DNA from: Minisyncoccota bacterium | Lineage (GTDB): Bacteria > Patescibacteriota > Minisyncoccia > UBA6257 > 2-01-FULL-56-20 | Assembly: GCA_036266715.1 (NCBI GenBank) | Contig: DATAXS010000006.1 | Location: 1,757-65,756, forward strand | Length of the DNA stretch: 64,000 nucleotides | Direction: 5' to 3' | Shown here: positions 10,645-28,879 of the stretch, piece after piece | How positions within the stretch are numbered: the stretch's first letter is position 1 | Layout: every line of letters begins with the position of its first letter | The notes under the pieces: model-generated | Database searches by the model: none | Told to the model about the DNA's origin: nothing | The model's input: only the letters and a program-made list of their open reading frames with translations | Program-made: the position numbers and the translations under genes

Positions 10645-12705
10645 ATGAAAAAACTCAAACAAATAAGCCTTTTCCTTCTTGTGCTTGCGGCGTATATCAT
10701 TTCCGGCAAACTAGGGCTCCAACTTGCGTCCATTCAGGCAAATGCCACGCCCATTTGGGCGCCCGCCGGTATTGCAACGGCGGCGCTCCTCATTCTGGGC
10801 TACCGTTTTTGGCCGGCAATATTTCTTGGTGCTTTTATTACGAATATTACGACGGGAGGAACGCCCGTGGCTGCAACGCTTGCAATCGCCATCGGCAACA
10901 CGCTGGAAGCGCTCCTTGCCGCCTACCTCGTGAACCGTTTTGCGAACGGCGTGCGTGCGCTCGATAAGACGGACAACGTGTTCCGCTTTGCGTTCCTCGC
11001 GGGCGGCGTGAGTCCCATGGTAAGCGCGACGATCGGGGTTACGAGCCTCTTCCTTGCGGGATCCCTGCATGCGGCGGACTTTACTTCCGTTTGGAGCACG
11101 TGGTGGCTGGGCGACGTGGGAGGCATGCTCATCATTGCGCCGTTCCTGCTCGCGTGGTTCACCGACCATGCGATCGAGTGGAGCACAAGAAAGATCCTTG
11201 AGGTCGTGGCGCTCGCCGCGCTGCTTTTTGCGTTTGCCCTTTTTGCGTTCAAAGGCACCCCGGGATTCATTTTTGTGTTCTACCTTTTTATTCCGGTTTT
11301 CGTATGGGTCGCGTTCCGGTTCAGCCAGCGGGAGACGGCGACCGTGCTCTTCGCCATGACCGAGATCACGCTTTATGAAACACTGCACGGCGAGGGGCCG
11401 TTCATCAATGCCGCGACGACGCTGAATGCGGCCCTGCTTCTTTTCCAGGCGGCGATGGTCACGATCGCTATCACCATGTTTGCGCTTTCCGCAGCGTCCG
11501 CCGAGGAACGGAAGCATGCGGTGGCGACCATACGGGCGAACGAACGGATGGAACAGGAAAAGGCGGTTGACGCGGCCATTATTGCGAGCGTGGGTGACGG
11601 GCTTATTGTGACCGACCAAGAAGGCAATATTGCGCTTGTAAATCCTCAAGCGGAAAAGTTTCTCGGCTGGCGGGCGGAGGAGATTGTCGGGAAAAAATAT
11701 TATGACGTGATCCAGGTGCAAAACGAGGATGGCGTGACCGTGGCGCTCTCCGAACGGCCGCTCGTGAAGACCGTCGCCGAACGGAAAAGGATTGCGAGTG
11801 GGCCGATGTTTGCCACGCGCTACTACGTGCGCAAGGACGGGGGCCGTTTCCCGGTTTCCTTCACCAAAACGCCCGTAATGCTCGGCGGCGAGGTCATCGG
11901 GACCATAGAAATTTTCCGCGACGCCACAAAGGGCGTGGAGATCGACCGCACAAAATCGGAGTTCGTATCGCTCGCGGCGCACCAGCTCCGCACGCCGCTT
12001 TCCATCATTGCCATGCACGCGGAGCTCCTCAAGAAGCAGGGCCAGCTTTTCGGCAACCACGACGAGGAGATGTGTGTGGATTATGCGACGGAGATCCACG
12101 ATGTTGCGATGCGCATGGCGGACCTCATCAACGACCTTCTGAACGTTTCCCGCATCGATACGCAGACGCTTGTCGTGACGCCGGGATCGGTCAATGTGCG
12201 GAGGCTTGTGGACGGTATCCTCCGGGAAATGGCGTTCAAGTTTTCCAGCCGGAATATTACCGTGCGCACGAACTATCCGGATCCCGCCCCGGAACTCGTG
12301 ACGGACCCACACCTTCTTGAGATCATAGTAGAGAATCTTTTGGGGAATGCGGTGAAATATACGCCTGAAGGGGGAAGGGTTTCCATTGTGGTGAGAGAAG
12401 AGGAGCTGGACATTGTGGTTACGATCACGGACACCGGCCACGGCATCCCGCATGCCCAGCACGGAGAAGTGTTCAAGAAATTTTTCCGTGCGGACAATGC
12501 GCGGCGGATGGCGAGCGAAGGCACCGGACTCGGCCTTTACATCGTGAAGTCGGTCGTGGAACGCCTGGGCGGTAGTATTTCCTTTGAGTCGCGCGAAGGC
12601 GAGGGGACGAGCTTTGTGGTGCATATTCCAAAGACGAGCGCGGAGGGACTGGGTATTCCGGAAGAAGACGATATTTCCACGCTCGCCGTGTCCTCTTCTT
12701 TATAA
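10645..12705 (+). CDS. sensor histidine kinase (MASE1 membrane domain - PAS - HisKA - HATPase_c)
   Basis: MASE1-like 'ISGKLGLQLASIQANATPIWAPAGIATAALLILG'. PAS 'GDGLIVTDQEGNIALVNPQAEKFLGW'. H-box 'SLAAHQLRTPLS'. N/G boxes 'LLGNAVKYTPEGG' and 'DTGHGIP..GTGLGLYIV'. ATG 10645 preferred over TTG 10600. Confidence 0.85.
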   Translation: MKKLKQISLFLLVLAAYIISGKLGLQLASIQANATPIWAPAGIATAALLILGYRFWPAIFLGAFITNITTGGTPVAATLAIAIGNTLEALLAAYLVNRFANGVRALDKTDNVFRFAFLAGGVSPMVSATIGVTSLFLAGSLHAADFTSVWSTWWLGDVGGMLIIAPFLLAWFTDHAIEWSTRKILEVVALAALLFAFALFAFKGTPGFIFVFYLFIPVFVWVAFRFSQRETATVLFAMTEITLYETLHGEGPFINAATTLNAALLLFQAAMVTIAITMFALSAASAEERKHAVATIRANERMEQEKAVDAAIIASVGDGLIVTDQEGNIALVNPQAEKFLGWRAEEIVGKKYYDVIQVQNEDGVTVALSERPLVKTVAERKRIASGPMFATRYYVRKDGGRFPVSFTKTPVMLGGEVIGTIEIFRDATKGVEIDRTKSEFVSLAAHQLRTPLSIIAMHAELLKKQGQLFGNHDEEMCVDYATEIHDVAMRMADLINDLLNVSRIDTQTLVVTPGSVNVRRLVDGILREMAFKFSSRNITVRTNYPDPAPELVTDPHLLEIIVENLLGNAVKYTPEGGRVSIVVREEELDIVVTITDTGHGIPHAQHGEVFKKFFRADNARRMASEGTGLGLYIVKSVVERLGGSISFESREGEGTSFVVHIPKTSAEGLGIPEEDDISTLAVSSSL

Positions 12706-14249: not shown

Positions 14250-15407
14250 CTACGAAATATCGGATTCCTTCGTGCGAGCAAGGAACGGGGAAATGGGTTT
14301 TACGAACCCCGCCATGGCAAGATCCAGTAGTTTAAGATATTGGTTTACGGCGGCGAGCGAAGGGGAATCGGGCGCGCTCATCTCCGTGAGCGAGCGCGTG
14401 ACGCCGTCTTTCCCCGTATAAAATACGCGGTCGTGCCAGAATTCGCGCCCTTTGAGCGCGGGATAGCGGTCCACGATCTCGCTTATCTGGCCGGCATAGC
14501 GCACGAAGAGCGATTTGCGGCTTTGTGGCATGAGGAGAATATCACTCTTCTTTTCGTCGCGGATCTCATGGACAAACTCCTGGAAGGTCCGGGCATTCGT
14601 GAGGTTGATCATGCCGCTCGGTTCTAAGCCGTGCCGGTCGCCGCCCGAAATGAGCGGGAGGCCGATGCGCTCCGCAATGACCATCACGCGCCGGTTCGTT
14701 TCCCACGATTGGAGCGCGTTCACCTCAAGCGCGTGCATCCATTTGCCGTAATGCGCAAGGAACTCATCCACCACCGGCACGGGAATCTCGCGGCCGATCC
14801 TTCCCTGGTCCGTCAAGGGGTGGTTGAGGACGATGAGCACTTCGGGGATCTTGTGGAGTCGCGCGAGGATGTCCGCCAGCACCTTGCCATCCGGTTTTGC
14901 GGTGAATGCACGCATTTCCGCAAGAAGCGAGGCACTTTTTGCGCGCGGCAGGTTGTGTACGCCTACATGGAAAATAAATTTTTTGTAAGGGACGCTCCAC
15001 TCAAGTGAGATAGGAACGTTCTTTTTGTGAATGTCTATAAGTTCCTCGTTCGCCGCGGTCTCGTCGTGGTCGGAAAGGGAAACAAGAGGGCTTAAATTTT
15101 CTTTTTCCACCTGTTTTGCCTCAAGGAGATACGCGTCCTCCGGCGATATGGGCGACGTCCAGTAAGCATAGCGGTAGTCAATGCCCTCGCCCCACTTTTT
15201 CTCGTGGCTTGCTTCGGCACGGGCGAGGAGCCGGGCAAAGGGGGATACCTTTTCGGCGAAATCGGGGAGAAATCCAAGGTTTTCCTTTGAGTGCCACGTG
15301 TGGCCGTGCAGCGACACGCCCGTCAGGAATTTTTCACGCCGTGAACTCCTCCTCCACTTGTAATGGAAATTCGTAGCCATGCGCTTCGGGGAAATGATGT
15401 GATTCAA
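14250..15407 (-). CDS. PHP-domain-like metal-dependent phosphoesterase
   Basis: 'SLHGHTWHS', 'SLSDHDE', 'VLNHPL', 'SGGDRHG', the His/Asp motifs typical of the PHP superfamily. Confidence 0.5.
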   Translation of the reverse strand: MNHIISPKRMATNFHYKWRRSSRREKFLTGVSLHGHTWHSKENLGFLPDFAEKVSPFARLLARAEASHEKKWGEGIDYRYAYWTSPISPEDAYLLEAKQVEKENLSPLVSLSDHDETAANEELIDIHKKNVPISLEWSVPYKKFIFHVGVHNLPRAKSASLLAEMRAFTAKPDGKVLADILARLHKIPEVLIVLNHPLTDQGRIGREIPVPVVDEFLAHYGKWMHALEVNALQSWETNRRVMVIAERIGLPLISGGDRHGLEPSGMINLTNARTFQEFVHEIRDEKKSDILLMPQSRKSLFVRYAGQISEIVDRYPALKGREFWHDRVFYTGKDGVTRSLTEMSAPDSPSLAAVNQYLKLLDLAMAGFVKPISPFLARTKESDIS

Positions 15408-15647: not shown

Positions 15648-17702
15648 ATGAAAAAAATAATTGTGTTCGTGTGCTTTGTGTTCGCAGGTTTTTTTGTTCA
15701 CCAAAATGTCATGAACACGGCGCACGCCGATTCGCCCTTCACTATGGCGGTGCAGGGGTCGGCGACTGCGGCCGTTGGCCAGGGGGACGGCCTTTCCGCA
15801 TCCGTCACGGACAGCGGCAATTCCGTTTCGAATGTGATCGTAGACGTGGAAGTGCACGACGCATCCGGCGCCAGGGTGTTCCAGCAGTTCTTCTCCGGCC
15901 AGAATTTCGGTTCGGGCCAAACGCAGAATTACAGCGCGGGATGGACGCCGACCGCGAACGGCACGTATACCGTGGATGCGGGCGTTTTTAATGCCGATTG
16001 GTCGCAGCTTCTTTCCTGGGAACAGGCCGGGCTTACGGTAACGGTGGGCGGCGCGGCGGCGCCGAGCTTCACCGCGACGGCAAGTGCGAGCCCCGCCGCG
16101 CCGACCACAGGCCAGCCCGTCAACGTGTCGTTCAACGTGCAGGACGGCAACGCGCCGGCGAACGGCATGATCGTGGATTTTGAGGTCTATGGTCCCTCCG
16201 GCGCAAAGGCATACCAGCAGTTCTTTTCCGGCCAAAACTTTTCCGCGGGTCAAACGAATTCCTACACGGCGTCGTGGACGCCGAGCGCCACGGGGAACTA
16301 TACCGTGGACGTAGGGGTCTTCACGGCAAATTGGGCAGAGACCGTTTCCTGGACAAATGTTTTGGGAACGACGGTCGCGCAATCAAATCCGCAGTTTAAT
16401 GTGGCGGCAAACGTGAACCCCACCGCTCCCACGCCCGGGCAGGCAGTGTCGCTCGGCGCGAACGTCACGGATGCCGGCGGCCCGGTGTCAAACGTCATCA
16501 CCGACCTTGAGGTGCATGATGCTTCCGGCAACAAAGTGTTCCAGCAATTCTTTACCGGCCAGAACTTTTCTGCGGGCGGGACCCAGTCCTACAACGTGAA
16601 TTGGACGCCATCCTCGGCAAGCACCTACACGTTTGACGTCGGCATATTCAATGCCGATTGGTCCCAACTTCTTTCCTGGAATGCGGCGGAAAATATCAAT
16701 GTGGCAACGGCCGCGACGGAAGATCCACCCGCGCCAACCCCAACCCCGACCCCGACCCCGGCACCAACACCGACTCCCACTCCCACGCCGGTGGCCACTC
16801 CTGTCGCGAATTCGGTGTTGAGTGCGACGGTAGCGCTTTTGAACAGCCCCTTTTACGTTGACCCGGATTCGCAAGCAGCGGTTTCCGCAAGTTCGCTTAC
16901 CTCAAGCGATCCAACGGACGCGGCATTGATCAATATTATTGCCACTGAGCCGACGGGTGTCTGGTTCGGCGGCTGGAACACGGACGTGTACCAGGATGTG
17001 AACGCGCTTGTGAGCGCCGCGCAGAATACGGGGAAGACCCCGGTGCTCGTGGCGTACAACATTCCCAATCGTGACTGCGGCGGGTATTCCGCCGGCGGCG
17101 CGCAAACTCCGGCCGCATACCAATCGTGGATACGATCTTTTGCGAGCGGCATTGGCAACCGGAGCGCGATCGTGATCCTTGAGCCGGACGGGCTCGCCAA
17201 CATGGATTGCCTTTCGGCAGCGGACCAGGTGACGCGGGAAGGACTTTTGAACTACGCGGTGGGCATCTTGAAATCGCTTGGCAATACCAAAGTCTATCTT
17301 GATGCGGGCAATCCGAACTGGATATCCGCGGGGGACATGGCTCCGCGGCTTGAGGCCGCCGGCATCGCGCAGGCGGATGGATTTTCGCTCAACGTCTCCA
17401 ACTTCTATACGACGTCGGCAAACGTGGCATTCGGCGAATCGCTCTCGGCGCTCGTAGGCGGCAAGCACTTTGTGGTGGACACAAGCCGCAACGGCAACGG
17501 TTCCTTGAACGGCGAGTGGTGCAACCCAGCGGGCATGGCGCTCGGCAACACGCCGACGTTCAAGACGGGAAATCCGTTAGTAGATGCATATCTTTGGATC
17601 AAGCCGCCCGGCGAATCGGATGGGACGTGCAACGGCGGACCTTCGGCGGGGACATGGTGGTCGCAGTATGCGGTAGGTTTGGCGCAAGCAGCGGGTTACT
17701 GA
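15648..17702 (+). CDS. secreted GH6 cellulase with four N-terminal beta-sandwich repeats and a Pro/Thr linker
   Basis: Signal peptide. Four ~105-aa repeats ('VFQQFFSGQNF..GQTQ.Y...WTP...GTYTVD.GVF.ADWS'). Linker 'PAPTPTPTPTPAPTPTPTPTPVATP'. GH6 motifs 'YNIPNRDCGG', 'ILEPDGLAN', 'YLDAGNPNW', 'WIKPPGESDG'. Confidence 0.85.
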   Translation: MKKIIVFVCFVFAGFFVHQNVMNTAHADSPFTMAVQGSATAAVGQGDGLSASVTDSGNSVSNVIVDVEVHDASGARVFQQFFSGQNFGSGQTQNYSAGWTPTANGTYTVDAGVFNADWSQLLSWEQAGLTVTVGGAAAPSFTATASASPAAPTTGQPVNVSFNVQDGNAPANGMIVDFEVYGPSGAKAYQQFFSGQNFSAGQTNSYTASWTPSATGNYTVDVGVFTANWAETVSWTNVLGTTVAQSNPQFNVAANVNPTAPTPGQAVSLGANVTDAGGPVSNVITDLEVHDASGNKVFQQFFTGQNFSAGGTQSYNVNWTPSSASTYTFDVGIFNADWSQLLSWNAAENINVATAATEDPPAPTPTPTPTPAPTPTPTPTPVATPVANSVLSATVALLNSPFYVDPDSQAAVSASSLTSSDPTDAALINIIATEPTGVWFGGWNTDVYQDVNALVSAAQNTGKTPVLVAYNIPNRDCGGYSAGGAQTPAAYQSWIRSFASGIGNRSAIVILEPDGLANMDCLSAADQVTREGLLNYAVGILKSLGNTKVYLDAGNPNWISAGDMAPRLEAAGIAQADGFSLNVSNFYTTSANVAFGESLSALVGGKHFVVDTSRNGNGSLNGEWCNPAGMALGNTPTFKTGNPLVDAYLWIKPPGESDGTCNGGPSAGTWWSQYAVGLAQAAGY

Positions 17703-19312
17703 TAATTTACTACGGATAAAGTGGCAGACGACGTGGACGACGCCTGTTCCGTGCTCGGTGTGCCCGCCGCGCCCGCACCGCCCGAAACGGCATACGAATT
17801 TACGATTGTCTGCATATCCGCGAGCGTGGTGTTGTTGTAGTTCAGCTGGTAGACGTAGAGCGTGAGGTCCGGGGAAAAGTTCTGTTCGTAGAGGCGCTGG
17901 TAATGTGTTTCAAAATACATTTGAAGATCGCTTTCATACCCCTGGTTGTAGCTCAAGATGAGATAGAGCTTTTGGTAGTTCCCGAATGTCCCCACGTTCG
18001 CCGCGAGCGTGCTTGTGGTGAACGCGGGGATGGGACCGGACACGAGCTGGTCCCAGACGGGGAGCGTGGTCAGCGTGGCGCTCCCGGTGTAGTAGTACTC
18101 AAAGGGATAGACGGTGAATGGCGCGGAAACGGCCACGATGTCCCGGCTTGATGCGTTCGCCGAAACATAGGAGGCCACTTGGGAATAATCTTCTTTGACC
18201 GACGCCTGCGGGTTCACCGTTTGTATCTGGAGCATGACGACCATAAACCCTGCGAGCGCGAACTTCCCGACCGTGGCTGCGGATTGCGGATAGAACGAGA
18301 AGAACCAGGCGACCGCGAGACAGAACGATGGGAAGAAACCGATGAAATAGCGCGAAAGATAGAACGGCTCAATGACGTGGCTTAATGCCGCTGCGAGGAC
18401 GATGGGTACGATTGCTGCCGCAGTAAAGTAAACGCCTTCCGGCGACACCTTCTGGTTTTTTTGGAGCGCAAAAAAAAGCAGTAGCGTAAGGAGTGGCCAT
18501 GCGGAAAGAATAGCAGTGTTCAAGGGGTCTGCCTGGAAACCAAAGAGGAAGTTGGAGAATGTATTAAAGACATCAACCGTGGAAGGCGCCGTGAGCTTTG
18601 GCGTGGTGTTTGCGCCGAAGCCGCCCAGCGTGTGGACGTAGTAGAGCCACGGGACAAAGAGTGCCGCAAGAATGAGCGTGATCATCACAAAATTCCTCAA
18701 AGAGTGTTTGGGGAATATTTTGTGGTAGGCGATATAGAAAAGCCCGTCCACGCCGAGCATAAGAAGGAAGAAGTAATGGGTGTAGATCCCCAAAAGACAG
18801 GAAAAGAAATAACCGAACCAATATGCCTTCCGATGCTCCGGCTTTCCCTTAAAGAGAAGGATAAAAAATATTTGGCTTGCCACGGTGACGAGCGTGAGCA
18901 GGCTGTACATCCGGATAATGCTCCCGTACCAGTTGGTAAACGGGGAAATGGTAAAAAGGATGGTGGCAAAAATGGAGAGCGATTCATTGAACGCTATTTT
19001 TCCCAAGTAATACACGAGAGGAATGGTCACAAGGTAAAAAATGAGCGAGAGCAGGCGCGCGACCGTGACCGAGCTACCGAAGAGCATCAGCCAGTAGTGG
19101 AGCATGATGTGGTAGAGCGGCACGTGCACGTCCTGGCCCACCACGTAGAATATTCCCGTAAAGGTGTGCTCCGCCTGCCAGAGGGTTTGCGATTCATCCA
19201 GCCCGATGCTCTGCGGCATCATATAAAACATTGAGAAGAGGAAGGCAAAAACGACGAGCCCGATGAGAATGTAGGGTATGTAGACGCGTTTCATTGCGCG
19301 GCGCAAAGACAA
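17696..19312 (-). CDS. GT-C fold membrane glycosyltransferase (GT39/PMT_2/ArnT-like)
   Basis: 538 aa with more than 10 TM helices. First-loop 'DESQTLWQA' and 'DVHVPLYHIMLHYW' (DE motif and HPPLY-like). Its 3' end overlaps the convergent GH6 gene by 7 nt. Confidence 0.65.
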   Translation of the reverse strand: MSLRRAMKRVYIPYILIGLVVFAFLFSMFYMMPQSIGLDESQTLWQAEHTFTGIFYVVGQDVHVPLYHIMLHYWLMLFGSSVTVARLLSLIFYLVTIPLVYYLGKIAFNESLSIFATILFTISPFTNWYGSIIRMYSLLTLVTVASQIFFILLFKGKPEHRKAYWFGYFFSCLLGIYTHYFFLLMLGVDGLFYIAYHKIFPKHSLRNFVMITLILAALFVPWLYYVHTLGGFGANTTPKLTAPSTVDVFNTFSNFLFGFQADPLNTAILSAWPLLTLLLFFALQKNQKVSPEGVYFTAAAIVPIVLAAALSHVIEPFYLSRYFIGFFPSFCLAVAWFFSFYPQSAATVGKFALAGFMVVMLQIQTVNPQASVKEDYSQVASYVSANASSRDIVAVSAPFTVYPFEYYYTGSATLTTLPVWDQLVSGPIPAFTTSTLAANVGTFGNYQKLYLILSYNQGYESDLQMYFETHYQRLYEQNFSPDLTLYVYQLNYNNTTLADMQTIVNSYAVSGGAGAAGTPSTEQASSTSSATLSVVNYQ

Positions 19313-19315
19313 TTT

Positions 19316-20863
19316 TTATATTTCGACTTCTTGGTTTTGGGTGGCTTGGAGCAATGCGGAGACCGTCATCGGTTCCTGTGTTTGCGGCGCGGCGGCGCGC
19401 ACGTATTTGGCAAAGACGACCGCATTGATGAGGCCCCACGAAAAGTTCGCGACCCAGGCGGGCGTCACGACGCCATGCGCGTGCACGACGGAATATGCCG
19501 CGCCCGCGACGACGAGCGGGATGTACGCCATTTGAGCAACCGTCAAATAAAGGAAGTTGCCGCGCTGGGCCCGTTTGGGCGTAATGGAGAATCCGGATTT
19601 CCTGCGGAAGAAAGAGGCGACCGACGAGGCAATGTGGATTTGGAATCCCGCGACCGAGAACGCGAGCGCGCGGTAAGTGAAGGAAGAATTGGAGGAGCGC
19701 TGGATGGTGTAGAGCATGAGCAGTATGTAGGGAATGAAGACGGTCGCGAGCGCCATCGTGGAGGTTTGGATGGGGAACTGTCCGGTAAAGAAGAACATAA
19801 GAGGAATAATGGCATCAATGAGCACCACCCACCCTGAAAGGAAGTAGCTCACCGAGGAGAGATATTGCATGCGCTGTTTGAACGTGATCCCGCGCGTAAA
19901 GAGCAGGTTGTGCTGGAAGATGAGGTCCAGGCTGCCGCGCGCCCAGCGTGCCTGCTGTTTTGTGTAGGCAAGGAAATCTTCCGGTGCCAAGCCGCGGGCA
20001 AGCACCTTCGGCACGTAGAGCGACTTCCAGCCGTTCTTATGGAGGAAAAATCCGGTAATGAAATCCTCGGCGATGCTGCCCTCGTACATGCCGCCGACCT
20101 CCATGAGCGCCGTGCGACGCACTACCATGTTCGTGCCGCACATGGTGACCGCATTCAGGCGGTTTTTCCCTTTGCAGATGGGGCCAAAGAAGAGCGACTG
20201 CTGTTCCCACGCGCCACCCGCCACGAAGTTGGTTTCGCTGTTCTTGTAAAATTGCGGCGTTTGCACAAAGGCGAGTTGGGAATCCGCAAAATAGGGGACG
20301 GTCTCGCGGAGAAACTCCGGCTTGGGAATATGGTCCGAATCAAAGAATGCCACGAACGGGCTCTCGGTGACGGACAGGCCGTTATTGATGTTGCCGGCTT
20401 TCGCCCCGCGCGGCTTCCGGCGCGTAATGCAATTCACGCCGAGCTGGTCCGCAAGGCGCACCACGTCGGCCCAGTTCTCTTTTTTTGCCACATAGCCATC
20501 GTTCAAAATAAACACGTAAAAGTTGGGGTAATCCATGGCGAGCGCGCCGCGCACGGTTGCTTCTATCACGTCAATCGGCTCGCCCGCCACGGTGATAAAG
20601 ACATCCACGGGCGGCGTGAATTGCGGGTCTTTCGGCACATCGTGCTCCGTGTCCCAGATGGTCCAGATAAAGGTGATGGCTTGCCAGAGGTGGAAGACCT
20701 CGCCGAAAATAAGAAGCCAGAAAAGGACCAACTCTCCTTTTTGGAAGAAGAACGCGATCATAAAGAAATAAAAGAGCGCAAGCAGGATGTTCACCGCAAG
20801 GAGAAGTTTGGGAACCTGAGTATTTTTAAGAAATTGTTCGTCGTGCATTGGATGTTGTTGCAA
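19316..20863 (-). CDS. processive GT2 beta-glycan synthase (cellulose-synthase BcsA-like, no PilZ domain)
   Basis: 'DVFITVAGEP', 'FFDSDH' (DxD), 'IAEDFITG' ((T/A)ED), 'QQARWARGSL' (QxxRW), flanked by TM helices. The C-terminus has no RxxxR/DxSxxG PilZ signature. Confidence 0.8.
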   Translation of the reverse strand: MQQHPMHDEQFLKNTQVPKLLLAVNILLALFYFFMIAFFFQKGELVLFWLLIFGEVFHLWQAITFIWTIWDTEHDVPKDPQFTPPVDVFITVAGEPIDVIEATVRGALAMDYPNFYVFILNDGYVAKKENWADVVRLADQLGVNCITRRKPRGAKAGNINNGLSVTESPFVAFFDSDHIPKPEFLRETVPYFADSQLAFVQTPQFYKNSETNFVAGGAWEQQSLFFGPICKGKNRLNAVTMCGTNMVVRRTALMEVGGMYEGSIAEDFITGFFLHKNGWKSLYVPKVLARGLAPEDFLAYTKQQARWARGSLDLIFQHNLLFTRGITFKQRMQYLSSVSYFLSGWVVLIDAIIPLMFFFTGQFPIQTSTMALATVFIPYILLMLYTIQRSSNSSFTYRALAFSVAGFQIHIASSVASFFRRKSGFSITPKRAQRGNFLYLTVAQMAYIPLVVAGAAYSVVHAHGVVTPAWVANFSWGLINAVVFAKYVRAAAPQTQEPMTVSALLQATQNQEVEI

Positions 20864-20865
20864 AG

Positions 20866-22263
20866 TTATTGTGAGAAGTTGAGGGCAAAAAGGTTGGGGA
20901 GGTCGTTATTGTAGAGCGCCATCCCGAACCATGCGATATTGGAGTCGTAGTAGCTGAGTGGCAGGCGCCACGTCTGCGTGTCGGGGTCATAAAGCGATTG
21001 GAGCTTTTCCGTATAGACCGTGTTGCTGTCTGCGGGATCTGCGACCATGAAGTATCCTATTGTGCCGCCATATACGGCAGGATCCTGGTAGAGCGGCGGG
21101 ACGGGAGTCCCGTCGTGCGCATAGACCGCGTCAAGAATCTGTTGTTTGTCCCATTGATCGGTAAGAAAGTGGAGTTTTTGGAGCACGGCTTCCGCGCGCG
21201 GGTCCTTGTTCCATTCCCAGTCAAGCGCGATGCGGAAGGGAACGCGGAGCGCATCGTAGCCGAAGTTCGTGTCTTCGCCGGAACTGGCTGCGGGAGCGGA
21301 GAGGCTGCCGGTAGTCGTGTCCATGACGACCCAGTCCGGCGGCAGGTCCGCGCTCGTCGCGCTTGTTGAAGCGTCGAGCGGAAGCGCAATACTGTTATCC
21401 AATACTTGGTATGAAGTGTTGATGAGACCGTTCCAGTCATCCGAAGGATCCACTTGGGCGAAGATGCGGTAGGCGTACGGGGCGAAGTACGAAGGGTCAA
21501 TGGGCTGCATTTCCTGCGTCTTTTCGGCGCTCGTCAGATTGTTGGGCGCGAGGTATGGTTCATTGTTTGCAATAAACACCTCGTTCGCCCAGATGCTCTT
21601 GACGATGGGGATCGCGGCCTCAAGGTACGCGGGGTTTTGCCAGCGCGCATAGGCGAAGATGAGCGAGAGGGCAATGTCCGTGTCGGCATCGCTCGCGCTG
21701 TTCTCCCCATTTTGTGCAACGATGACCCCGCCCGTTGTGTTACCGCCGCCGTTTCCCGCGGTAGTGGAAGGCCCCCAGAGCCACGAAAAGAGATTGTCGC
21801 TCCGTTGGAGGTTCGTTTGGGTCCACTTCCAGCTGGCATCGAAAGTCGGTTCGTCATCCATCCAGACCGCGCGGAGCATCGTGTATCCTTCGCCCTCGGA
21901 AGTACTGTCGTTGCTTCGCTCGGTGTCGAACGTGCGCCCGCTTGAGGGGTCGATATAAGATCCTTTGTAGTTTTCCCAGAGCGACGCGAGCATGGTCTTG
22001 TTCGAAAACACGGGTTCGGAAAGCGTTTGGGAATTCTTTTGGTAGTACCAGGTGCCGAGGAGCGTAACGCCGCCAAGCGCAAGGAAGATGACGCCAAATA
22101 TTTTTGCCAAAAAATGATTCCGCGCGGTACCAAGGATGAGAAGTAGTATTCCGGCCACGAGTACGGCGGCTGCGATCACGATGAGTGTGACGAACGTGCC
22201 GTGCGTGAGCGCGTTTGAAGGGTAGTAGTCGTAGTTAAAACTTGTGGAAACGGTGGTAGGCAT
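20866..22263 (-). CDS. membrane-anchored GH8 endoglucanase (BcsZ-like)
   Basis: Matches the GH8 signature: 'ASDADTDIALSLIFAYARW'. Also 'STSEGEGYTMLRAV'. N-terminal TM anchor. Start at ATG 22263 ('MPTTVS'), because the longer ORF to 22413 runs into the upstream gene. Confidence 0.8.
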   Translation of the reverse strand: MPTTVSTSFNYDYYPSNALTHGTFVTLIVIAAAVLVAGILLLILGTARNHFLAKIFGVIFLALGGVTLLGTWYYQKNSQTLSEPVFSNKTMLASLWENYKGSYIDPSSGRTFDTERSNDSTSEGEGYTMLRAVWMDDEPTFDASWKWTQTNLQRSDNLFSWLWGPSTTAGNGGGNTTGGVIVAQNGENSASDADTDIALSLIFAYARWQNPAYLEAAIPIVKSIWANEVFIANNEPYLAPNNLTSAEKTQEMQPIDPSYFAPYAYRIFAQVDPSDDWNGLINTSYQVLDNSIALPLDASTSATSADLPPDWVVMDTTTGSLSAPAASSGEDTNFGYDALRVPFRIALDWEWNKDPRAEAVLQKLHFLTDQWDKQQILDAVYAHDGTPVPPLYQDPAVYGGTIGYFMVADPADSNTVYTEKLQSLYDPDTQTWRLPLSYYDSNIAWFGMALYNNDLPNLFALNFSQ

Positions 22264-22303
22264 GTGTGTGGATTTGATACGCCGTGCGGCGGTGCGCGTT
22301 ACG

Positions 22304-24187
22304 TTAATAAAGTTTGTAAATAAATATGGTGGTGCCCACGCGATAGTCGGGTGGCGGTACGCCACCCATGCCCGGCGCGGGCGCGCGGAACGCGGTGAGC
22401 CAGGAATATTCATCGCTCGGGTCGCGCGCGTAGCCTGGCGCGGCCGGCTGGATGGCGTCCTGGAGATTGTTTATGGAAACTGCAAAATACTCTATGCCCT
22501 GCGACGCGGGATTGCCCATGGAAGAATTCCACGCCACGTATTTATTGCCCAAGTAATATGCCGGATTGGAACCGCCAAAGAAGTCCAACGCGAGCTGGTT
22601 CACTTGGGGGTTCTGGTTCATCCACGCTTGCAGGGCGAGCATGTCCTGGCCCCAATCGTAGTTGGAGTCTGTTACGTAGCGGTAGCCGTTTTCCGTCCCG
22701 TCACCGAGCTCGTTGAAGTACGAGAGGAAGTGCGGGTAAGCAAATGCTGTTTCGCCGAGCGACCATACGAGCATTGCTCCCACAAACGCGCCCTTCCACG
22801 AGAATTTGCTTCCATTGCCCGCCGCCGCGCCCGCTCGCGGCGCAAACCAGCGGCGGAGCGAGCTCGTCGCGAGAACATACATGAGCGGAATGGTGGGTAG
22901 GAGGTGCCGCACGCCGATGTTCAGCGTGCTTTCTATGCTGATGCCCCAATAGACCACCACAAAAACAAACATGGCGAATTGCGGGAATTCTTCCCGTATG
23001 TAGCTCCAGAACCGACTTTTCCGCTTCAGAATGACGGCGATGATCCTTGCAAGCGCAAGGATGGCCGCGAGCACGAGGAGGATGAGGACCGGCAATGTTT
23101 CCTTGAGCGCGTAGACGACGGGGAAGTAGAGGTGCGTGCCGTAGGAGTAGACCTTGCCGAGAAAGTAGCTTGTGTTGCCGCCCGTGAGGCGCTCAAAGTC
23201 CATGATCTCGCCAAGGAGATATTCCGCCATCGGACGCGTGAGGGGATTTCCCGCGGCCTTGATGTCAAGTTTCGCCAAGCACGTGACGGGATGGGTCGGC
23301 TCGCATGTGCCGGACGCAATCCCGCCGACGATGGATACTGTATCCGAAAGTTGGCGTGCGGGCGGATACCCGGCCGTAAAGATCGCATAGAGCGGATAGA
23401 CGATGACCGCATACCCGATGACGCCAATAAGCAGGAAGTAGCCGATATATTTTAAAAGCCGGCGGAAAAAGGAGCGCGCACGCTGTGCGGCGAACGGATC
23501 TTTTTTCCAGTCGCGTACCACGGTACCAAGAAAATCGAAAAGCAAAAGGATGGCAATCACCGGGATGAGGATGAGGTCGGAAAATTTCATGACCTGCGCG
23601 ATGCCGAGCCCGATCCCGGCGATAAACAAATTCTTTGCGCCGGGTTTTTGCATAAAGCGCACGAAACAGAATAATCCAAAGACCGCGCCGAATGCCGCAG
23701 CGATGTCCGTCGTCACGTAATGCCCGTTTGCGAGGATGACGGGCGAGAGGCCGACCATGGTCGCCGGCAGGAATGCCCATGTGTACCCAAAAAGCTTTGC
23801 GGCCCAAAAATAGGTGAGCAGGATGAGTCCGAGCGTGAGGAGCATGGGGAACAGCCGTGCCCAGCCGATGATGGCAGAGGCGCTGTTTCCCAAGCCGAAC
23901 AAAAATGCGCCGCCTACGCCCCATTCGCCGTTCACGGAGGTCGTCCAAAAGGAATTGGTATCCGGGAACTGCAGGTGCAGGAAGAGGAGCGGGACGGCGG
24001 CGAGCGCCTTAAGCAGAGGGGGATGTTCGGGATTCAGGCGGTAATCAAAACGGGTGATGTAGGCGTATCCGGCGGGAATATGCGCAAGTTCGTCCACCAC
24101 GGCGGACTCGCCCTGTGCACTTCCCCACATAAGCGCAAAACTCAGTGCACAAAGCACGAGAAGCGCGATTCGCGTTTTCTTCGTCAT
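22304..24187 (-). CDS. GT-C fold glycosyltransferase family 39 (polyprenyl-phosphate-sugar dependent)
   Basis: 'VDELAHIPAGYAY', 'NPEHPPLLKALAAVPL', more than 10 TM helices and a large C-terminal extracytoplasmic domain. Confidence 0.75.
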   Translation of the reverse strand: MTKKTRIALLVLCALSFALMWGSAQGESAVVDELAHIPAGYAYITRFDYRLNPEHPPLLKALAAVPLLFLHLQFPDTNSFWTTSVNGEWGVGGAFLFGLGNSASAIIGWARLFPMLLTLGLILLTYFWAAKLFGYTWAFLPATMVGLSPVILANGHYVTTDIAAAFGAVFGLFCFVRFMQKPGAKNLFIAGIGLGIAQVMKFSDLILIPVIAILLLFDFLGTVVRDWKKDPFAAQRARSFFRRLLKYIGYFLLIGVIGYAVIVYPLYAIFTAGYPPARQLSDTVSIVGGIASGTCEPTHPVTCLAKLDIKAAGNPLTRPMAEYLLGEIMDFERLTGGNTSYFLGKVYSYGTHLYFPVVYALKETLPVLILLVLAAILALARIIAVILKRKSRFWSYIREEFPQFAMFVFVVVYWGISIESTLNIGVRHLLPTIPLMYVLATSSLRRWFAPRAGAAAGNGSKFSWKGAFVGAMLVWSLGETAFAYPHFLSYFNELGDGTENGYRYVTDSNYDWGQDMLALQAWMNQNPQVNQLALDFFGGSNPAYYLGNKYVAWNSSMGNPASQGIEYFAVSINNLQDAIQPAAPGYARDPSDEYSWLTAFRAPAPGMGGVPPPDYRVGTTIFIYKLY

Positions 24188-24322
24188 AATGATGGCTCCA
24201 TATTCTTTTTTTAATTTTCAAGAAATAAAGATGATATCGCCATGAAGGCGCGCGCGGGCAGGTGCGCGCCGGGCGCACAAAAAACGCGCGCACCGATGAT
24301 CGCGGATCGCGCGCGGATTTTG

Positions 24323-24826
24323 CTAGCGGCTTTTCTTCGCAACGATCTTCGTCGTGGCGTCGCTCTCCATTTTGTCCAAAACGTTTTGTGCGGCGAGAAT
24401 GCGGAGCTCTTCCGCCATGTGGATGCGTTCGCGGAGCTCGGTTGTGGAGAAGCCATGGTCGCGACCGTTGAAGTGCACGCGGTACGGCAGGTCCCAGCCG
24501 GTAAATTTCTTTCCTTTCCAATCCGCGCCGATGATGCGCACGTCGTAACGGACGATTTTCAAAAGGTCATAAAGATCGGCTTCCGTGGAGTAGTACACGA
24601 TCTCGTCCACGTACTTGATGCTTTGGAGAATAATGCGCCGTTCCTCAAAGGACATGACGGGTTTGTTCTTTACCTTCTCCCGATAGCCGGGATCAAGCGT
24701 GGGATCGGTCTGCAGGGCGACAATGAGATAGTCGCAGACCTCCTTGCAGTCCTTGAACATGAGCATGTGCCCGGCGTGGCAAAGGTCGAACGCGCCGCAG
24801 GTGAAACCGACGTTGTATTTTTTCAT
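24323..24826 (-). CDS. cytidylyltransferase, glycerol-3-phosphate cytidylyltransferase (TagD)-like
   Basis: 'GFTCGAFDLCHAGHMLMF' (HxGH), 'SFEERRIILQSIKYVDEIV', 'IIGADWKGK'. ATG 24826 ('MKKYNVG') preferred over the ORF-track start 24979. Confidence 0.75.
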   Translation of the reverse strand: MKKYNVGFTCGAFDLCHAGHMLMFKDCKEVCDYLIVALQTDPTLDPGYREKVKNKPVMSFEERRIILQSIKYVDEIVYYSTEADLYDLLKIVRYDVRIIGADWKGKKFTGWDLPYRVHFNGRDHGFSTTELRERIHMAEELRILAAQNVLDKMESDATTKIVAKKSR

Positions 24827-25025
24827 AATTGCAATTTTCGCATTGGGGAGATTAAAAATTTGTGAAGACCCTGCATATTTCCGGTTCATCGCCCGTTCAC
24901 TGGCCCTCCGTTTTAATAAGTATAAAAGCCGCGCACGCAGTGAGCAACCATGGCGGTTGGCGCCGCGTGCGACGCGCAATAAATAAAAAGGTCAATTGGT
25001 AAAAATAAGCAAATAAATAAAAACA

Positions 25026-26495
25026 ATGTTTATAAAAACAAAAAAGTGGAAAAAAGTGGTCTTGTCGCTCGTGCTCGGCGTGGCAGTGGTGGCGCTCGGT
25101 GCCTTTGCCGTCACGCGGGCGCAGATGGTCTCCTCGCTCTCCATCGCTTCGTCTTCGGCGAGCGACCAGAGTTCCCTGCTTTCGGTCACCTCGGTGGATG
25201 AGACCACGGATACCAGCTTGCTCACGGGGAATGCCACGAGTTCCGTTTCGGTGGGGCTCATAAGCCAGGACGGCGCGAACACGAACGGTGTTTCCGTCGC
25301 GGTCCAGCTTCTGCAGAACGGCAACGTGATCCAGCAGGCCGTCTACAGCAACCAGAACATTCTCCATGAGAGCCCGCAGACATATTGGCTTTCGTTCTCC
25401 GGCGTTCCGAACGGAACGTACACCGTTGCGGTCGTGGTCAATAACCCCGACGGCAGCGTGAACGCGTCCTTTAGCAATCTCGGCTCGGTCGTAGTGTCAG
25501 GGAGTACCGTTACCTCAACCTCCACGACTACTTCCACCGCCGCGAACGCGATCCAGATAATACCCACGAGCTTGCCCGACGCGACCGCTTCCAGTTCGTA
25601 TTCTGAGACGCTTACCGCCTCGACTACGATGAGCGGTCCCTTCACGTGGAGCCTTGCTTCCGGGACGTTGCCGGACGGCCTTTCGCTTGATACGTCGGCC
25701 ACGAGCAGCATGGCTACGCTCTCCGGCACGCCGACCACGGTAGGGTCATCCACGTTCGCGGTGAATGTGGCGAACGCCACGAGTTCCGCGTCGCAGACGT
25801 ACACGCTGAGCGTTGATGCGCCCGCGAGCGGCACGCCCACGCCAACCTATGCGGTTCAGATAGTTCCCGCGTCGCTTCCCGATGCGACGGTAAGCAGTTC
25901 GTATTCGCAAACGCTCACCGCCTCCACGTCGGCAAGCACGTCATTCGCGTGGAACGTCGCTTCCGGGACGTTGCCGTCCGGGCTTAGCCTCAATACGGGC
26001 ATAAGCAGCACGACGGCCACCATCACGGGCACGCCGACTGCAGCAGGATCGTCCACGTTTACCATCGGCGCGACCGACGGGACGAACTCGTCTACGGAGT
26101 CATATACCTTGAGCGTGGATCCGTCGTCAACGACAACCACCACCACGAGCACGGCGACATCTTCCGGCGACCTCGCCATAAATAGCGTCTATGAGCCCGC
26201 GACGAGCGTGAATGCAAGCGATACGCAAACCACCATCACCCCATATCTCGTTTCCACGAACGGTGCGAATGTGGGCAATGTGACGGTGCAAGTAGCGCTT
26301 CAGCAAAACGGTACGGTGATTGATTCGCAGTCCTATGGCAACCAGGATATTCTCCACGAATACCCGCAGGCCTATCCGCTCACCACGTCGTCCACGCTTC
26401 CCGCCGGGACCTACACGATCGCCGTCACGGTCTATAACGCCGATAATTCGGTGAATGCTTCCTTCCCAAACCTTGGGACTCTTACGGTGACATAG
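25026..26495 (+). CDS. secreted surface protein: beta-sandwich - 2x He_PIG (putative Ig) - beta-sandwich
   Basis: Signal peptide. Two 'LPDAT.SSSYS.TLTAS....F.W..ASGTLP.GLSL.T......T..GTPT..GSSTF' repeats. The terminal domains resemble the GH6 repeat ('NGTYTVAVVVNNPDGSVNASF' and 'AGTYTIAVTVYNADNSVNASF'). Confidence 0.7.
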   Translation: MFIKTKKWKKVVLSLVLGVAVVALGAFAVTRAQMVSSLSIASSSASDQSSLLSVTSVDETTDTSLLTGNATSSVSVGLISQDGANTNGVSVAVQLLQNGNVIQQAVYSNQNILHESPQTYWLSFSGVPNGTYTVAVVVNNPDGSVNASFSNLGSVVVSGSTVTSTSTTTSTAANAIQIIPTSLPDATASSSYSETLTASTTMSGPFTWSLASGTLPDGLSLDTSATSSMATLSGTPTTVGSSTFAVNVANATSSASQTYTLSVDAPASGTPTPTYAVQIVPASLPDATVSSSYSQTLTASTSASTSFAWNVASGTLPSGLSLNTGISSTTATITGTPTAAGSSTFTIGATDGTNSSTESYTLSVDPSSTTTTTTSTATSSGDLAINSVYEPATSVNASDTQTTITPYLVSTNGANVGNVTVQVALQQNGTVIDSQSYGNQDILHEYPQAYPLTTSSTLPAGTYTIAVTVYNADNSVNASFPNLGTLTVT

Positions 26496-26541
26496 CCGCG
26501 CGGCGGCATTCAAAGCGAGTCAAGTAAAAATGACACAAAAC

Positions 26542-26565
26542 AAAACCCGGGATTTCCCGGGTTTT
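26542..26565. terminator. bidirectional intrinsic terminator
   Basis: AAAACCCGGG-ATTT-CCCGGGTTTT palindromic hairpin between convergent genes 25026..26495 (+) and 26579..27871 (-). Confidence 0.65.
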
Positions 26566-26578
26566 GTGGCATTAAGGG

Positions 26579-27871
26579 CTAGCCTGTGATCACAACCTTC
26601 GCAATGCCAAAAATGCTCTTCAGTGAGTATTGGGAGGAAAAGGGGATATCGTCGCCGTTCGCCACGTACGGGTCGCGCATGATGTAATTGCCTTTGCTGC
26701 CGCTTATGAGCACCACATAGTGCGTGCCGCCGTACGCATTCAGTCCCACGATCACCGGGTTTCCGGTCGCGAGCGTTGCGTCAATGGTCGTCGTCTTGCG
26801 CGTGACCGTTGCGCCGTCCACGTTGATCGTGGTGAGGAGGTAAGCGGGATAATATGCCGCGAAGTTGGCGGGATTGGAATTGATGGTCACGGGCGTCACG
26901 TCTTTATAACCGTAATGCGTGAGGACCATGGCAAGCGAGGTAACAAGGCACCCGTCGCTTGCGAGCGTGTATTTGGTGCCGTCAAGCGGGAGGTTGCCCC
27001 AGAGCGCGTCGCGCTGGTTGTAGTAGCAGCCCCACGCGTCACAATCCGTTTGACCGGCAAGCAGTTTGGAGCCGCCGGCGTTTTGCGTGAATGCCGAAAA
27101 GCTGTTGAGCTCGGCCTGGGCTGCGGCGAGCAACTGCTCGTACGTGGATTCTTTCTGGTCCGTTTCCGTAAGCAACTGGTTTTTGGATTGCACGGTCTGG
27201 GTGAGCGATTGTTGCTGGGAAGAAAGTGATTGCTGTTGGGTGGCAAGCGTCTGCTGTTTTTGCTGCGAGGTGGTCTTTGAGTCCGCAAGCGTGGATTCTT
27301 GCGTTTGGAGCGATTCGAGTTCGTTTTGGACGGCGCCTTCCACCTGCAGGGTGGCGTTCGTGTCGCTCCATGCGTCCGCGAGCGTGTTGGATGAAAGCAC
27401 CTGCATGAGGAGCGATTGGCCGTCATCCTTCTGGAGATTCACAAGATATTCTCCGAGCGCCTCCTGGTCGGTCTGGATCGTGGCTTCCGTATCGGAAATT
27501 TCTCCCCCGATCTGCTGGATCTGCAGCTGGGTGATGTTTATCTGATTTTGCGTCACGGAGATCTGCGCCTGCACTTTGCTCTTTTGGAGGTCAAGGGAAC
27601 TGATGGCCGCCTGGAGCGTTTTCTTGTCCGCGCCCACCTGCGTGAGCTCCGCCTGGTAGGTGGCGATCTGCTGGTTGAGCGATGTTATCTGCGCATTGTT
27701 GGCGTCTATCTGTTGCTGGAGCACGGCATCCGTGCTCGTCGCGGCGGTCGCGCTAGTCGAGGTGGTCGTTTGGGCGAGCGTCGCTGGAATGCCCACGCCT
27801 ACAATGAGCGTGAGTGCGCCGAGAAATAAGCCAACGCAGAGCGTTCCGAGTACTGCGAGATGCCTCATCAT
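26579..27871 (-). CDS. secreted coiled-coil protein with a C-terminal C39-like cysteine peptidase domain
   Basis: Signal peptide, ~230-aa Gln-rich heptad region, then 'CDAWGCYYNQRDALWGN', 'DGCLVTSLAMVLTHYG', 'GGTHYVVLISG' (peptidase_C39_2-like Cys...His). Confidence 0.6.
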   Translation of the reverse strand: MMRHLAVLGTLCVGLFLGALTLIVGVGIPATLAQTTTSTSATAATSTDAVLQQQIDANNAQITSLNQQIATYQAELTQVGADKKTLQAAISSLDLQKSKVQAQISVTQNQINITQLQIQQIGGEISDTEATIQTDQEALGEYLVNLQKDDGQSLLMQVLSSNTLADAWSDTNATLQVEGAVQNELESLQTQESTLADSKTTSQQKQQTLATQQQSLSSQQQSLTQTVQSKNQLLTETDQKESTYEQLLAAAQAELNSFSAFTQNAGGSKLLAGQTDCDAWGCYYNQRDALWGNLPLDGTKYTLASDGCLVTSLAMVLTHYGYKDVTPVTINSNPANFAAYYPAYLLTTINVDGATVTRKTTTIDATLATGNPVIVGLNAYGGTHYVVLISGSKGNYIMRDPYVANGDDIPFSSQYSLKSIFGIAKVVITG

Positions 27872-27917
27872 TTGATTATATAAAAATCCAAGAAAACAAG
27901 CACATTTTCATGAAGAT

Positions 27918-28472: not shown

Positions 28473-28538
28473 ATAAAAAAATATGAAAAAGGCCCGGCTA
28501 TCATTTGATGCAGCGGGGCCTTTTGTGGAGGTCATTGT

Positions 28539-28808: not shown

Positions 28809-28879
28809 GTCTTACCTCCGTTGCGTTCAGGGTTGACTACGCAGTGCTAGATTCAGTCTAATATATTTTTAATACCTTG

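Follow-up and report, generated by a model that had tools for sequence, protein, structure and literature searches.

A minimal BcsA-like synthase without PilZ recurs beside a GH8 hydrolase and a GT-C glycosyltransferase in Patescibacteria

We analysed a 64-kb stretch of contig DATAXS010000006.1 (hereafter the window), part of a metagenome-assembled genome (MAG) of Candidatus Paceibacterota, an organism with a tiny genome. Between 17.7 and 24.9 kb, five consecutive open reading frames (ORFs) lie on the minus strand in the order cytidylyltransferase-fold protein, PMT-type glycosyltransferase of the GT-C class, membrane-anchored family 8 glycoside hydrolase (GH8), family 2 glycosyltransferase (GT2) with the core of the cellulose synthase BcsA, and a second GT-C. 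A secreted GH6 is encoded by a sixth ORF, which runs towards them on the plus strand. All six are found in the ORF list of the window at the coordinates given for them in an earlier, first-pass annotation. The core of this cassette is the GH8, the synthase and the downstream GT-C, the latter referred to below as the core GT-C.

By sequence and by structural model, the GT2 is predicted to be a minimal BcsA core: processive, channel-forming and without a PilZ domain. The motifs of a processive GT2 that the first-pass annotation had read in it (D, DxD, AED and QxxRW) hold both in an alignment of 23 homologues, where D122, D175-x-D177-H178, A265-E266-D267 and Q303-Q304-x-R306-W307 are invariant, and in the alignment to BcsA. 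Note that AED stands where TED is usual. The protein also has a gating loop of the FxVTxK type (F425-S-I-T428-P-K430), with F425, T428 and K430 invariant across the same 23 homologues. Its top solved relatives are the BcsA proteins of R. sphaeroides and E. coli (E about 1e-49); residues 16-494 align to residues 63-576 of R. sphaeroides BcsA, that is, from the third BcsA membrane helix to just before PilZ, and the first two BcsA helices are absent. NCBIfam scores are 256 bits for CelA, 72 for PgaC and 40 for NodC, and a tblastn search against plasmids gave 30-35% identity to BcsA and about 22% to PgaC. An AlphaFold2 (AF2) model (pLDDT 81.8, pTM 0.82) consists of a GT-A domain, interface helices, and two N-terminal and four C-terminal membrane helices; Foldseek ranks E. 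coli BcsA first (TM 0.83, rmsd 3.1 Å), followed by R. sphaeroides BcsA (0.80), plant CesA (0.72) and hyaluronan synthases (0.45-0.6). Profile scores, the match to BcsA and the structural ranking all place the protein among the processive glucan synthases, as had been supposed.

The claim that PilZ is missing is borne out in three ways: there is no Pfam match to PilZ, the alignment to BcsA stops at residue 576, and the model ends soon (about 25 residues) after the last membrane helix. The same search does detect PilZ in a true BcsA (P0413). It is solely this missing domain that suggests a synthase working independently of cyclic di-GMP (c-di-GMP). The usual Bcs partners, also said to be absent, are indeed not to be seen: no BcsB, BcsC or PilZ family occurs among the flanking window ORFs that were scanned, and neither BcsB nor BcsC was found in the precomputed Pfam lists of related loci.

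Two hydrolases accompany the synthase. The GH8 carries the signature ASDADTDIALSLIFAYARW reported for it, which fits the PROSITE GH8 pattern. The three Asp of ASDADTD and the catalytic Glu of SEGEGY are at least 95% conserved among 76 orthologues, and the motifs, which might have been misread in a single sequence, hold once these orthologues are aligned. The best NCBIfam match is BcsZ (107 bits, cut-off 299), the best solved relative is CMCax of G. xylinus (1wzz), and hydropathy reveals N-terminal membrane helices; the GH8 is a predicted membrane-anchored, BcsZ-like endoglucanase. The GH6, in turn, is composed of a signal peptide, three Ig-like (BsuPI/CARDB-type) repeats, a Pro/Thr linker (PTPTPT) and a GH6 catalytic domain, in which D476, D514, D552, D611 and D658 are at least 95% conserved among 36 orthologues. 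GH6 is a β-1,4-specific family (PMC9040799). At one related locus, L084, a protein of 553 amino acids (aa) without a Pfam match (16444-18105, minus strand) fills the convergent slot that the GH6 holds in the window.

What would such a set of enzymes make? Because the nearest characterised synthases are cellulose synthases, the GH8 is nearest to BcsZ and CMCax, and the GH6 family is β-1,4-specific, we infer that the product of the GT2 is a β-1,4-glucan made from UDP-glucose. The polymer might instead be another β-1,4-linked chain, such as a mannan, a ManNAc polymer or a chitin-like chain, and the specificities of GH8 and GH6 would then suit that polymer or peptidoglycan. We consider this distinctly unlikely. 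The synthase is only 24-35% identical to BcsA and its CelA score of 256 bits compares with a cut-off of 699, yet its top profile and structural neighbours are all cellulose synthases. Similarly, chitosanases and xylanases are also members of GH8, and chitin, xylan or peptidoglycan is the substrate of some GH6 enzymes, but the GH8 considered here is nearest to BcsZ-type enzymes. And whereas mannan enzymes of families GH130 and GH113 are encoded in the window, the cassette conserves no sugar-nucleotide modification gene specific for another backbone.

The third core component, the GT-C downstream of the synthase, is of a GT39/GT83-like type and has about 11-12 membrane helices and a small C-terminal extracytoplasmic alpha/beta domain. 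Three motifs, LDE..Q in the first loop (L38-D39-E40), DVHxP and R134, are invariant in 31 orthologues and at least 95% conserved in 71, actinobacterial ones included. An AF2 model built from the 31 orthologues (pLDDT 82.8, pTM 0.83) has a GT-C fold according to Foldseek, which lists ArnT first (TM 0.57 over the full length) and then STT3, ALG9/12, Pmt4, AftD and PglB. At the sequence level, the match to PMT_2 is weak (34 bits), the sole named NCBIfam family matched is the mycobacterial mannosyltransferase MT1671 (42 bits against a cut-off of 900), and PDB sequence searches with both GT-C proteins of the window returned no useful relative. The MT1671 enzyme acts on a polysaccharide, lipoarabinomannan, and is not known as a protein-modifying enzyme. 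Sequence and model together indicate a real GT-C that is probably active; since the Asp-Glu of the first loop and other signature residues are at least 95% conserved across phyla, catalysis appears to have been retained.

To what extent do these genes stay together elsewhere? The synthase family is large: a word-indexed search gave 3813 matches at E<=1e-10 (the top 120 measure 496-599 aa, nearly all about 500-545), an exhaustive search gave 1858 cluster representatives (50% identity) at E<=1e-30, and when each GTDB species was represented by one genome, no fewer than 573 loci encoded a relative. Hosts include Paceibacteria, Kaiser-, Adler-, Taylor-, Doudna-, Gracili-, Levyi- and Blackburnbacteria, WWE3 and Saccharimonadales, and relatives of about 50% identity are present in the Actinobacteria Geodermatophilus, Klenkia, Quadrisphaera and 'Streptomyces sp. 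NP160' (L062-L069). Cassette counts are drawn from the best 80 of these at least 573 loci plus a few extra ones; all ORFs of 82 loci were translated and matched to the window proteins, and later counts cover 87 loci. On one strand, the order is GH8, synthase, GT-C in 66 of the 82 loci and GH8, GT-C, synthase in nine, while the remaining seven are contigs cut within the cassette. Every informative related locus (75/75) has the triad and none is without any of the three, so that the arrangement lies far beyond chance. Wherever a GT-C adjoins the synthase, it is of the downstream type. Gene order, which the first pass had left to a synteny survey, is thus kept across many lineages of Patescibacteria and in Actinobacteria. 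The GH6 is a less constant companion: it lies within 10 kb in 22 of the 43 loci that have at least 6 kb on both sides, and in 21 of these 22 it is convergent and downstream, as in the window. In Geodermatophilus sabuli the order is small GT2, GH8, synthase, GT-C and convergent GH6. The presence of the whole module in Geodermatophilaceae-type Actinobacteria at about 50% identity suggests horizontal transfer between these and Patescibacteria; Actinobacteria are hosts of some Patescibacteria.

Such constancy also bears on whether the cluster is biosynthetic at all. With the GH8 tied to synthase and GT-C in 75 of 75 loci across phyla, the ORFs often overlapping, it is hardly credible that GH8 and GH6 are cellulases used for feeding, with the glycosyltransferases as unrelated neighbours. 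Glycoside hydrolases from candidate phyla radiation (CPR) bacteria are usually interpreted in terms of biomass degradation, it is true, the window also encodes a GH18, two GH130 and a GH113, and the GH6 is secreted and equipped with binding-type repeats. However, conservation at the loci extends neither to sugar transporters nor to downstream cellodextrin enzymes, and the GH8 is tethered to the membrane like processing enzymes of the BcsZ type.

A closer tie still is seen in natural fusions. Among the representatives of the exhaustive search are synthase-family proteins of about 1000 aa, and in five clusters these consist of a synthase followed by a PMT_2 GT-C (P0361, P0362 and P0364, at 48-58% identity to the window synthase, and P0373 and P0390, at 34-37%). 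The GT-C part is 38-42% identical to the core GT-C of the window and keeps LDESQSL. The P0361 fusion gene (L085, 6001-8988) has an uninterrupted translation and is present on four contigs, among them one of an NCBI MAG and one of an independent Logan assembly. In P0368 (L087, 6001-8748) and P0378, it is a small, non-processive GT2 that is fused to the N-terminus of the synthase. Recurring as they do across divergent clusters, the fusions strongly indicate that synthase, GT-C and small GT2 function as a unit.

Two further observations concern the synthase gene itself. In P0379 a Ser/Thr kinase is fused to the synthase, and in L087 a kinase gene lies directly upstream, which hints that phosphorylation might control the synthase in place of c-di-GMP. 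In the window, synthase and core GT-C share a reading frame, with one TAA and seven codons between them (…NQEVEI*KLSLRRAMKRVY…, 19295-19318, minus strand). Given the natural fusions elsewhere, this could reflect a recent split, or it could be a plain one-in-three coincidence.

One way to account for the tie would be that the GT-C is mainly a structural second subunit, as BcsB, GlxA and CcsB are, which steadies the channel and guides the chain, with catalysis secondary or absent. All bacterial cellulose synthases that have been characterised depend on a membrane partner, non-homologous and encoded alongside them (PMC11022532). At all loci it is the GT-C that takes this genomic place, several lineages have it fused to the synthase, and the synthase is without the two N-terminal BcsA helices. 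If the GT-C were a scaffold, though, we would not expect the first-loop Asp-Glu and other GT-C signature residues to be at least 95% conserved across phyla, nor a small GT2 and GtrA to co-occur with the synthase, the small GT2 even being fused to it. We regard a mainly structural role as very unlikely.

This brings us to the genes that might supply the GT-C with a donor. In 33 of 52 eligible loci (45 of 87 overall), a small GT2 is encoded no more than 5 kb from the synthase; its best solved relatives are the dolichyl-phosphate-mannose synthase (DPMS) of Pyrococcus furiosus (full length, E 1e-19), ArnC and GtrB. Enzymes of this kind charge polyprenyl phosphate with the sugars that GT-C transferases use. 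Genes or C-terminal domains resembling the flippase GtrA are present in 31 of 87 loci, and full sets of small GT2, GtrA-like protein and GT-C occur in, for example, L002, L084 and L085. Such a trio makes up the classic three-component system of extracytoplasmic glycosylation (PMC11127046). The DPMS/ArnC/GtrB-like and GtrA-like genes in related cassettes indirectly support the use of a polyprenyl-phosphate-sugar donor by the core GT-C. The first-pass annotation had proposed a glucan that is decorated or linked to protein or lipid and made without PilZ or BcsB, and both the synthase-GT-C fusions and the Gtr-type donor genes of relatives strengthen that idea.

What, then, would the GT-C glycosylate? 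Because its catalytic residues are conserved, because donor genes accompany the synthase and are found fused to it, and because the one named match, MT1671, has a polysaccharide acceptor, decoration of the nascent glucan is the most likely role, and one in which our confidence stops at, or a little short of, an even balance.

A protein acceptor is suggested by a different gene. Directly upstream of the GH8, at least 19 loci (L001, 8201-8800; L002, 8078-8728; about 17 more) have a small ORF without a Pfam family, whose product of 150-250 aa comprises a signal or anchor, a long Thr/Pro/Ser-rich stretch, a 'Y-x4-[LI]-S-x3-T' motif and a C-terminal membrane helix. These small ORFs (200 aa) are unlike one another by BLAST, yet alike in architecture and in their C-terminal motif, and a hidden Markov model (HMM) of the C-terminal part recovers examples on which it was not trained at the same position (L079, E 8.5e-8; L010, 1e-4). 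In L005, L014 and, probably, the window's clade, the GH8 carries motif and helix as an N-terminal fusion, the versions in L005 and L014 being Thr-rich. The window GH8 begins with FNYDYYPSNALTHGT followed by two hydrophobic helices; the HMM match to it is not significant (E 8.6), and we tentatively regard the segment as a fused remnant of the separate Thr/Pro-rich anchored protein.

Might the GT-C be a protein O-glycosyltransferase for this anchored protein and for the Pro/Thr linkers of the secreted hydrolases, with a glucan that is plain and unbranched? We think this unlikely, if less so than the alternatives considered above. Pfam and database names put the GT-C with dolichyl-phosphate-mannose protein mannosyltransferases, but the PMT_2 match is weak (34 bits) and the fold match to ArnT is as good as that to PMT. 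The Thr/Pro/Ser-rich ORF stands upstream of the GH8 in at least 19 loci and is fused to it in others, and the GH6 of the window has its PTPTPT linker; the window's clade, however, keeps the GT-C even though its GH8 N-terminus is without a Thr/Pro-rich stretch. DPMS-like donor genes would fit protein glycosylation equally well. The GT-C is constantly adjacent to and repeatedly fused with the synthase and not with a protein substrate, which O-glycosylation of proteins leaves unexplained.

A more elaborate possibility joins glucan and protein in a covalently anchored 'cellulose proteoglycan', in which a lipid-primed glucan is moved en bloc by the GT-C onto a protein or wall acceptor. The small GT2 would make polyprenyl-phosphate-glucose as a primer for the synthase, and the chain would extend at its non-reducing end with the reducing end still lipid-linked. 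A PMT-like GT-C at the exit of the channel, either docked or fused, would then transfer it to a Ser/Thr of the anchored Thr/Pro-rich protein or to another wall acceptor, and GH8 and GH6 would set chain length. We rate this scheme as highly improbable; if true, a polysaccharide would here be attached in a new way, and epibiotic Patescibacteria would have a candidate fibre for adhesion to their hosts.

Returning to decoration of the nascent chain, the gene content, motifs, folds, strict synteny and natural fusions established here lead us to picture the cassette as a c-di-GMP-independent, synthase-dependent machine for export of a β-glucan, probably β-1,4-linked, with an obligatory extracytoplasmic GT-C partner that most likely decorates the chain as it emerges. 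For this composite picture we would put the chances at about even. The GT2 would polymerise a UDP-sugar, most probably UDP-glucose, into a β-linked chain, most probably β-1,4, and thread it through its own six-helix channel, with a gating loop free of c-di-GMP control, PilZ being absent. The GT-C would replace BcsB, GlxA or CcsB in a fixed complex with the synthase, its active site facing the outside of the membrane, where a polyprenyl-phosphate carrier would supply it with a sugar, most likely for addition as side residues to the emerging glucan. In many relatives, a DPMS/GtrB-like GT2 would make the carrier sugar and a GtrA-like protein of the same cassette would flip it. The membrane-anchored GH8 may trim or release chains as BcsZ does, and the secreted GH6, in a role like that of CslZ, may cut the polymer or clear a path through the wall. 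In the window's clade, the second GT-C and the nucleotidyltransferase suggest extra decoration.

Keeping in mind that substrate, linkage, GT-C acceptor and hydrolase roles are predictions from sequence, we note several points that weigh against this picture. Substrate, linkage and acceptor all rest on homology, and the synthase is both of low identity to BcsA and far under the NCBIfam cut-off for CelA. Enzymes of the PMT_2/GT39 type classically glycosylate proteins, and given the Thr/Pro-rich proteins and linkers in the cassettes the acceptor of the GT-C could be one of these. GH8-containing synthase operons can make polymers other than cellulose, as with Pss of Listeria. A GH6 of Streptomyces, CslZ, is reported to act on peptidoglycan, weakening the argument from the hydrolases (PMC9040799). 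Only about half of the related cassettes have a small GT2 nearby, and neither BLAST nor phmmer found a DPMS/GtrB-like or GtrA-like gene in the 64-kb window, so that here the donor pathway must be elsewhere in the genome or different. Finally, other c-di-GMP receptors may exist, the genome being partial.

The coordinates of the cassette are collected in Table 1.

Table 1. Features of the cassette in the window, with the basis of each assignment.
Feature	Coordinates	Strand	Basis
Cytidylyltransferase-fold gene	24323-24979; likely ATG 24826, giving 24323..24826	-	Pfam CTP_transf_like, E 1.9e-11
Upstream GT-C, 627 aa	22304-24187	-	Pfam PMT and PMT_2
GH8	20866-22413; likely start M51, giving 20866..22263, 465 aa	-	Pfam Glyco_hydro_8, E 1e-36
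GH8 N-terminal segment	22039..22263	-	Hydropathy; same N-terminus in clade members L003 and L084
GT2 synthase, 515-aa ORF	19316-20863; likely ATG 20848, giving 510 aa	-	Pfam Glyco_tranf_2_3 / Cellulose_synt
Downstream (core) GT-C, 538-aa ORF	17696-19312; likely ATG 19294	-	Pfam PMT_2
Secreted GH6, 684 aa	15648-17702	+	Pfam Glyco_hydro_6 (PF01341), E 1.6e-66, plus three Ig-like repeats

Gene boundaries largely agree with what had been described. Read directly, the stops of the GH6 (17700-17702) and the core GT-C (17696-17698) reproduce exactly the 7-nt convergent overlap. The gaps of 2-3 nt described around the synthase stand only for the longest, TTG-started ORFs; with the publicly annotated ATG starts (P0001, 510 aa; P0121, 532 aa) they become about 17 and 21 nt. 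For the GH8, the most likely start at M51 leaves a 40-nt gap after the upstream GT-C instead of a 110-nt overlap. These start-codon corrections are cosmetic, and the observation stands. A scan for promoters and terminators across 15-26 kb gave signals no higher than background and is uninformative on operon structure.

The first two minus-strand genes have a more restricted distribution. The first-pass annotation had two GT-C enzymes flanking the GH8-synthase pair; the downstream one is the core partner, whereas the upstream one is confined to the window's clade, sharing contigs with the cassette only in L003, L084 and the contigs of P0242, P0244 and P0246. The two GT-Cs belong to separate families without mutual BLAST similarity. 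That of the upstream enzyme comprises 1581 matches of about 650 aa, with D32-E33 invariant or conserved in 120 sequences, and in a more distant genome a homologue lies beside a 1460-aa fn3/PG-binding surface protein. The cytidylyltransferase (167 aa from its likely ATG, with a CHAGH motif) had been labelled TagD-like. This label is good only at the level of the fold (PF01467), the protein scoring 66 bits against TIGR01518, the model of the glycerol-3-phosphate cytidylyltransferase TagD (cut-off 165), and 72 against RfaE domain II (cut-off 181.5). Orthologues (E 1e-54) adjoin the cassette in six of 87 related loci, in L085 directly after the synthase-GT-C fusion, making this gene an occasional accessory. 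We considered both genes as core parts and rejected them, as they are absent from most related cassettes.

Beyond the cassette, the window encodes other carbohydrate-active enzymes at 2396-6929 and 34948-36708, namely a GH18, two GH130 (β-1,4-mannooligosaccharide phosphorylase family) and a GH113 β-mannanase, whose C-terminal CARDB-like repeat shares 44-50% identity with the three GH6 repeats. Immediately beyond the GH6 lies a 385-aa ORF without a Pfam family (14250-15407, minus strand); in L003 and L084 a GtrA-like gene is found on the equivalent side. At 10600-12705 (plus strand) there is a sensor histidine kinase of 701 aa (MASE1-PAS-HisKA-HATPase), and a long antisense ORF over it (10711-12624) is probably spurious. 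Predicted surface or secreted proteins surround the cassette at 25026-30550, 36792-39425 and 47792-49633. The run comprises a He_PIG/PKD repeat protein, a coiled-coil protein with a Peptidase_C39-like domain, a protein with several fn3 domains and PG_binding_1, an 877-aa PG-binding protein and a lamin-tail-domain protein, and the region looks like an envelope or surface gene neighbourhood.

The cassette is widespread and conserved, and has apparently gone unnoticed so far. We found no description in the open-access literature that links cellulose synthase genes to Patescibacteria or to GT-C enzymes, and reviews and surveys of cellulose operons describe BcsB, CcsB and GlxA as partners and no GT-C (PMC8892547, PMC7112194). 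It is probably an unrecognised route to a cell-surface sugar polymer. Patescibacteria (CPR) account for much of bacterial diversity and live attached to other cells with very few biosynthetic genes; a conserved multi-enzyme polysaccharide machine is therefore likely to be central to their envelope or to host attachment. In genomes that bear the cassette, GH8 and GH6 'cellulases' counted towards biomass degradation by CPR would be biosynthetic parts. To the obligatory synthase partners BcsB, CcsB and GlxA the GT-C would add a fourth kind, one that is itself an enzyme, and it would couple synthase-dependent secretion to extracytoplasmic glycosylation from lipid carriers. The natural single-chain fusions are ready targets for structure determination, and the presence of the cassette in named Actinobacteria such as Klenkia soli DSM 45843 would allow experimental tests if these prove cultivable and tractable.

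How does the cassette compare with systems already known? With the Bcs systems (BcsA-BcsB-BcsZ-BcsC, types I-III) it shares a processive family 2 synthase with the D, DxD, (T/A)ED, QxxRW and FxVTxK motifs and the same fold (TM 0.80-0.83), an adjacent BcsZ-like GH8, and the logic of synthase-dependent secretion. Unlike them, it has no PilZ, no BcsB, no BcsC or TPR-porin (the organism being monoderm) and not the first two BcsA helices; its partner is a GT-C, identity is 24-35%, and NCBIfam equivalog cut-offs are unmet. Clostridial CcsA-CcsB-CcsZ is likewise a monoderm, synthase-dependent operon with a BcsA-like GT2 and a dedicated glycoside hydrolase (PMC7710045, PMC8892547). It differs in having a BcsB-like partner, a GH5 as CcsZ, and neither GT-C nor GH6. 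The YdaJ-N and PssA-E operons of Bacillus and Listeria, also monoderm, combine a BcsA-like GT2 with a dedicated glycoside hydrolase, again without GT-C or GH6. Some synthases of this Ccs/YdaJ-N/PssA-E group have no PilZ, but a BcsB-like partner and a separate c-di-GMP receptor are kept.

On the side of the GT-C, mycobacterial mannosyltransferases of the MT1671/Rv1635c family add sugars from lipid-phosphate donors to polysaccharide outside the membrane. The core GT-C matches this family weakly (42 bits versus 900), and there is no lipoarabinomannan pathway here. Related cassettes resemble the three-component systems (GtrA/GtrB/Gtr*, ArnC/ArnEF/ArnT and CsbB/GtcA/YfhO; PMC11127046) in pairing a DPMS/ArnC/GtrB-like enzyme and a GtrA-like flippase with a GT-C of ArnT fold and outward Asp-Glu. 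Those systems, however, modify Wzy- or ABC-dependent glycans, teichoic acids or lipid A, whereas the GT-C considered here is tied or fused to a BcsA-like polymerase, and the window holds the GT-C components only.

Perhaps the most instructive comparison is with CslA-GlxA-CslZ (plus LpmP) of Streptomyces. There, CslA, which produces cellulose in vitro, needs the adjacently encoded GlxA; flanking CslA is the GH6 CslZ, which together with a lytic polysaccharide monooxygenase (LPMO) opens peptidoglycan (PMC11022532, PMC9040799). Both arrangements belong to a Gram-positive-type envelope, and in both a synthase-like GT2 has a non-homologous membrane partner immediately downstream and an opposite-strand GH6 flanks the pair (PMC11022532, PMC9040799). 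They differ in that the partner here is a GT-C where Streptomyces has the copper radical oxidase GlxA (none of the cassette genes matched a family of the glyoxal/galactose-oxidase type), in the extra GH8, and in that no LPMO was seen; CslA, moreover, keeps a partial PilZ motif and a response to c-di-GMP, whereas the window synthase has no PilZ and is predicted to be independent of c-di-GMP. The cassette thus stands outside both the canonical Bcs and the CslA-GlxA families, though it would work like both.

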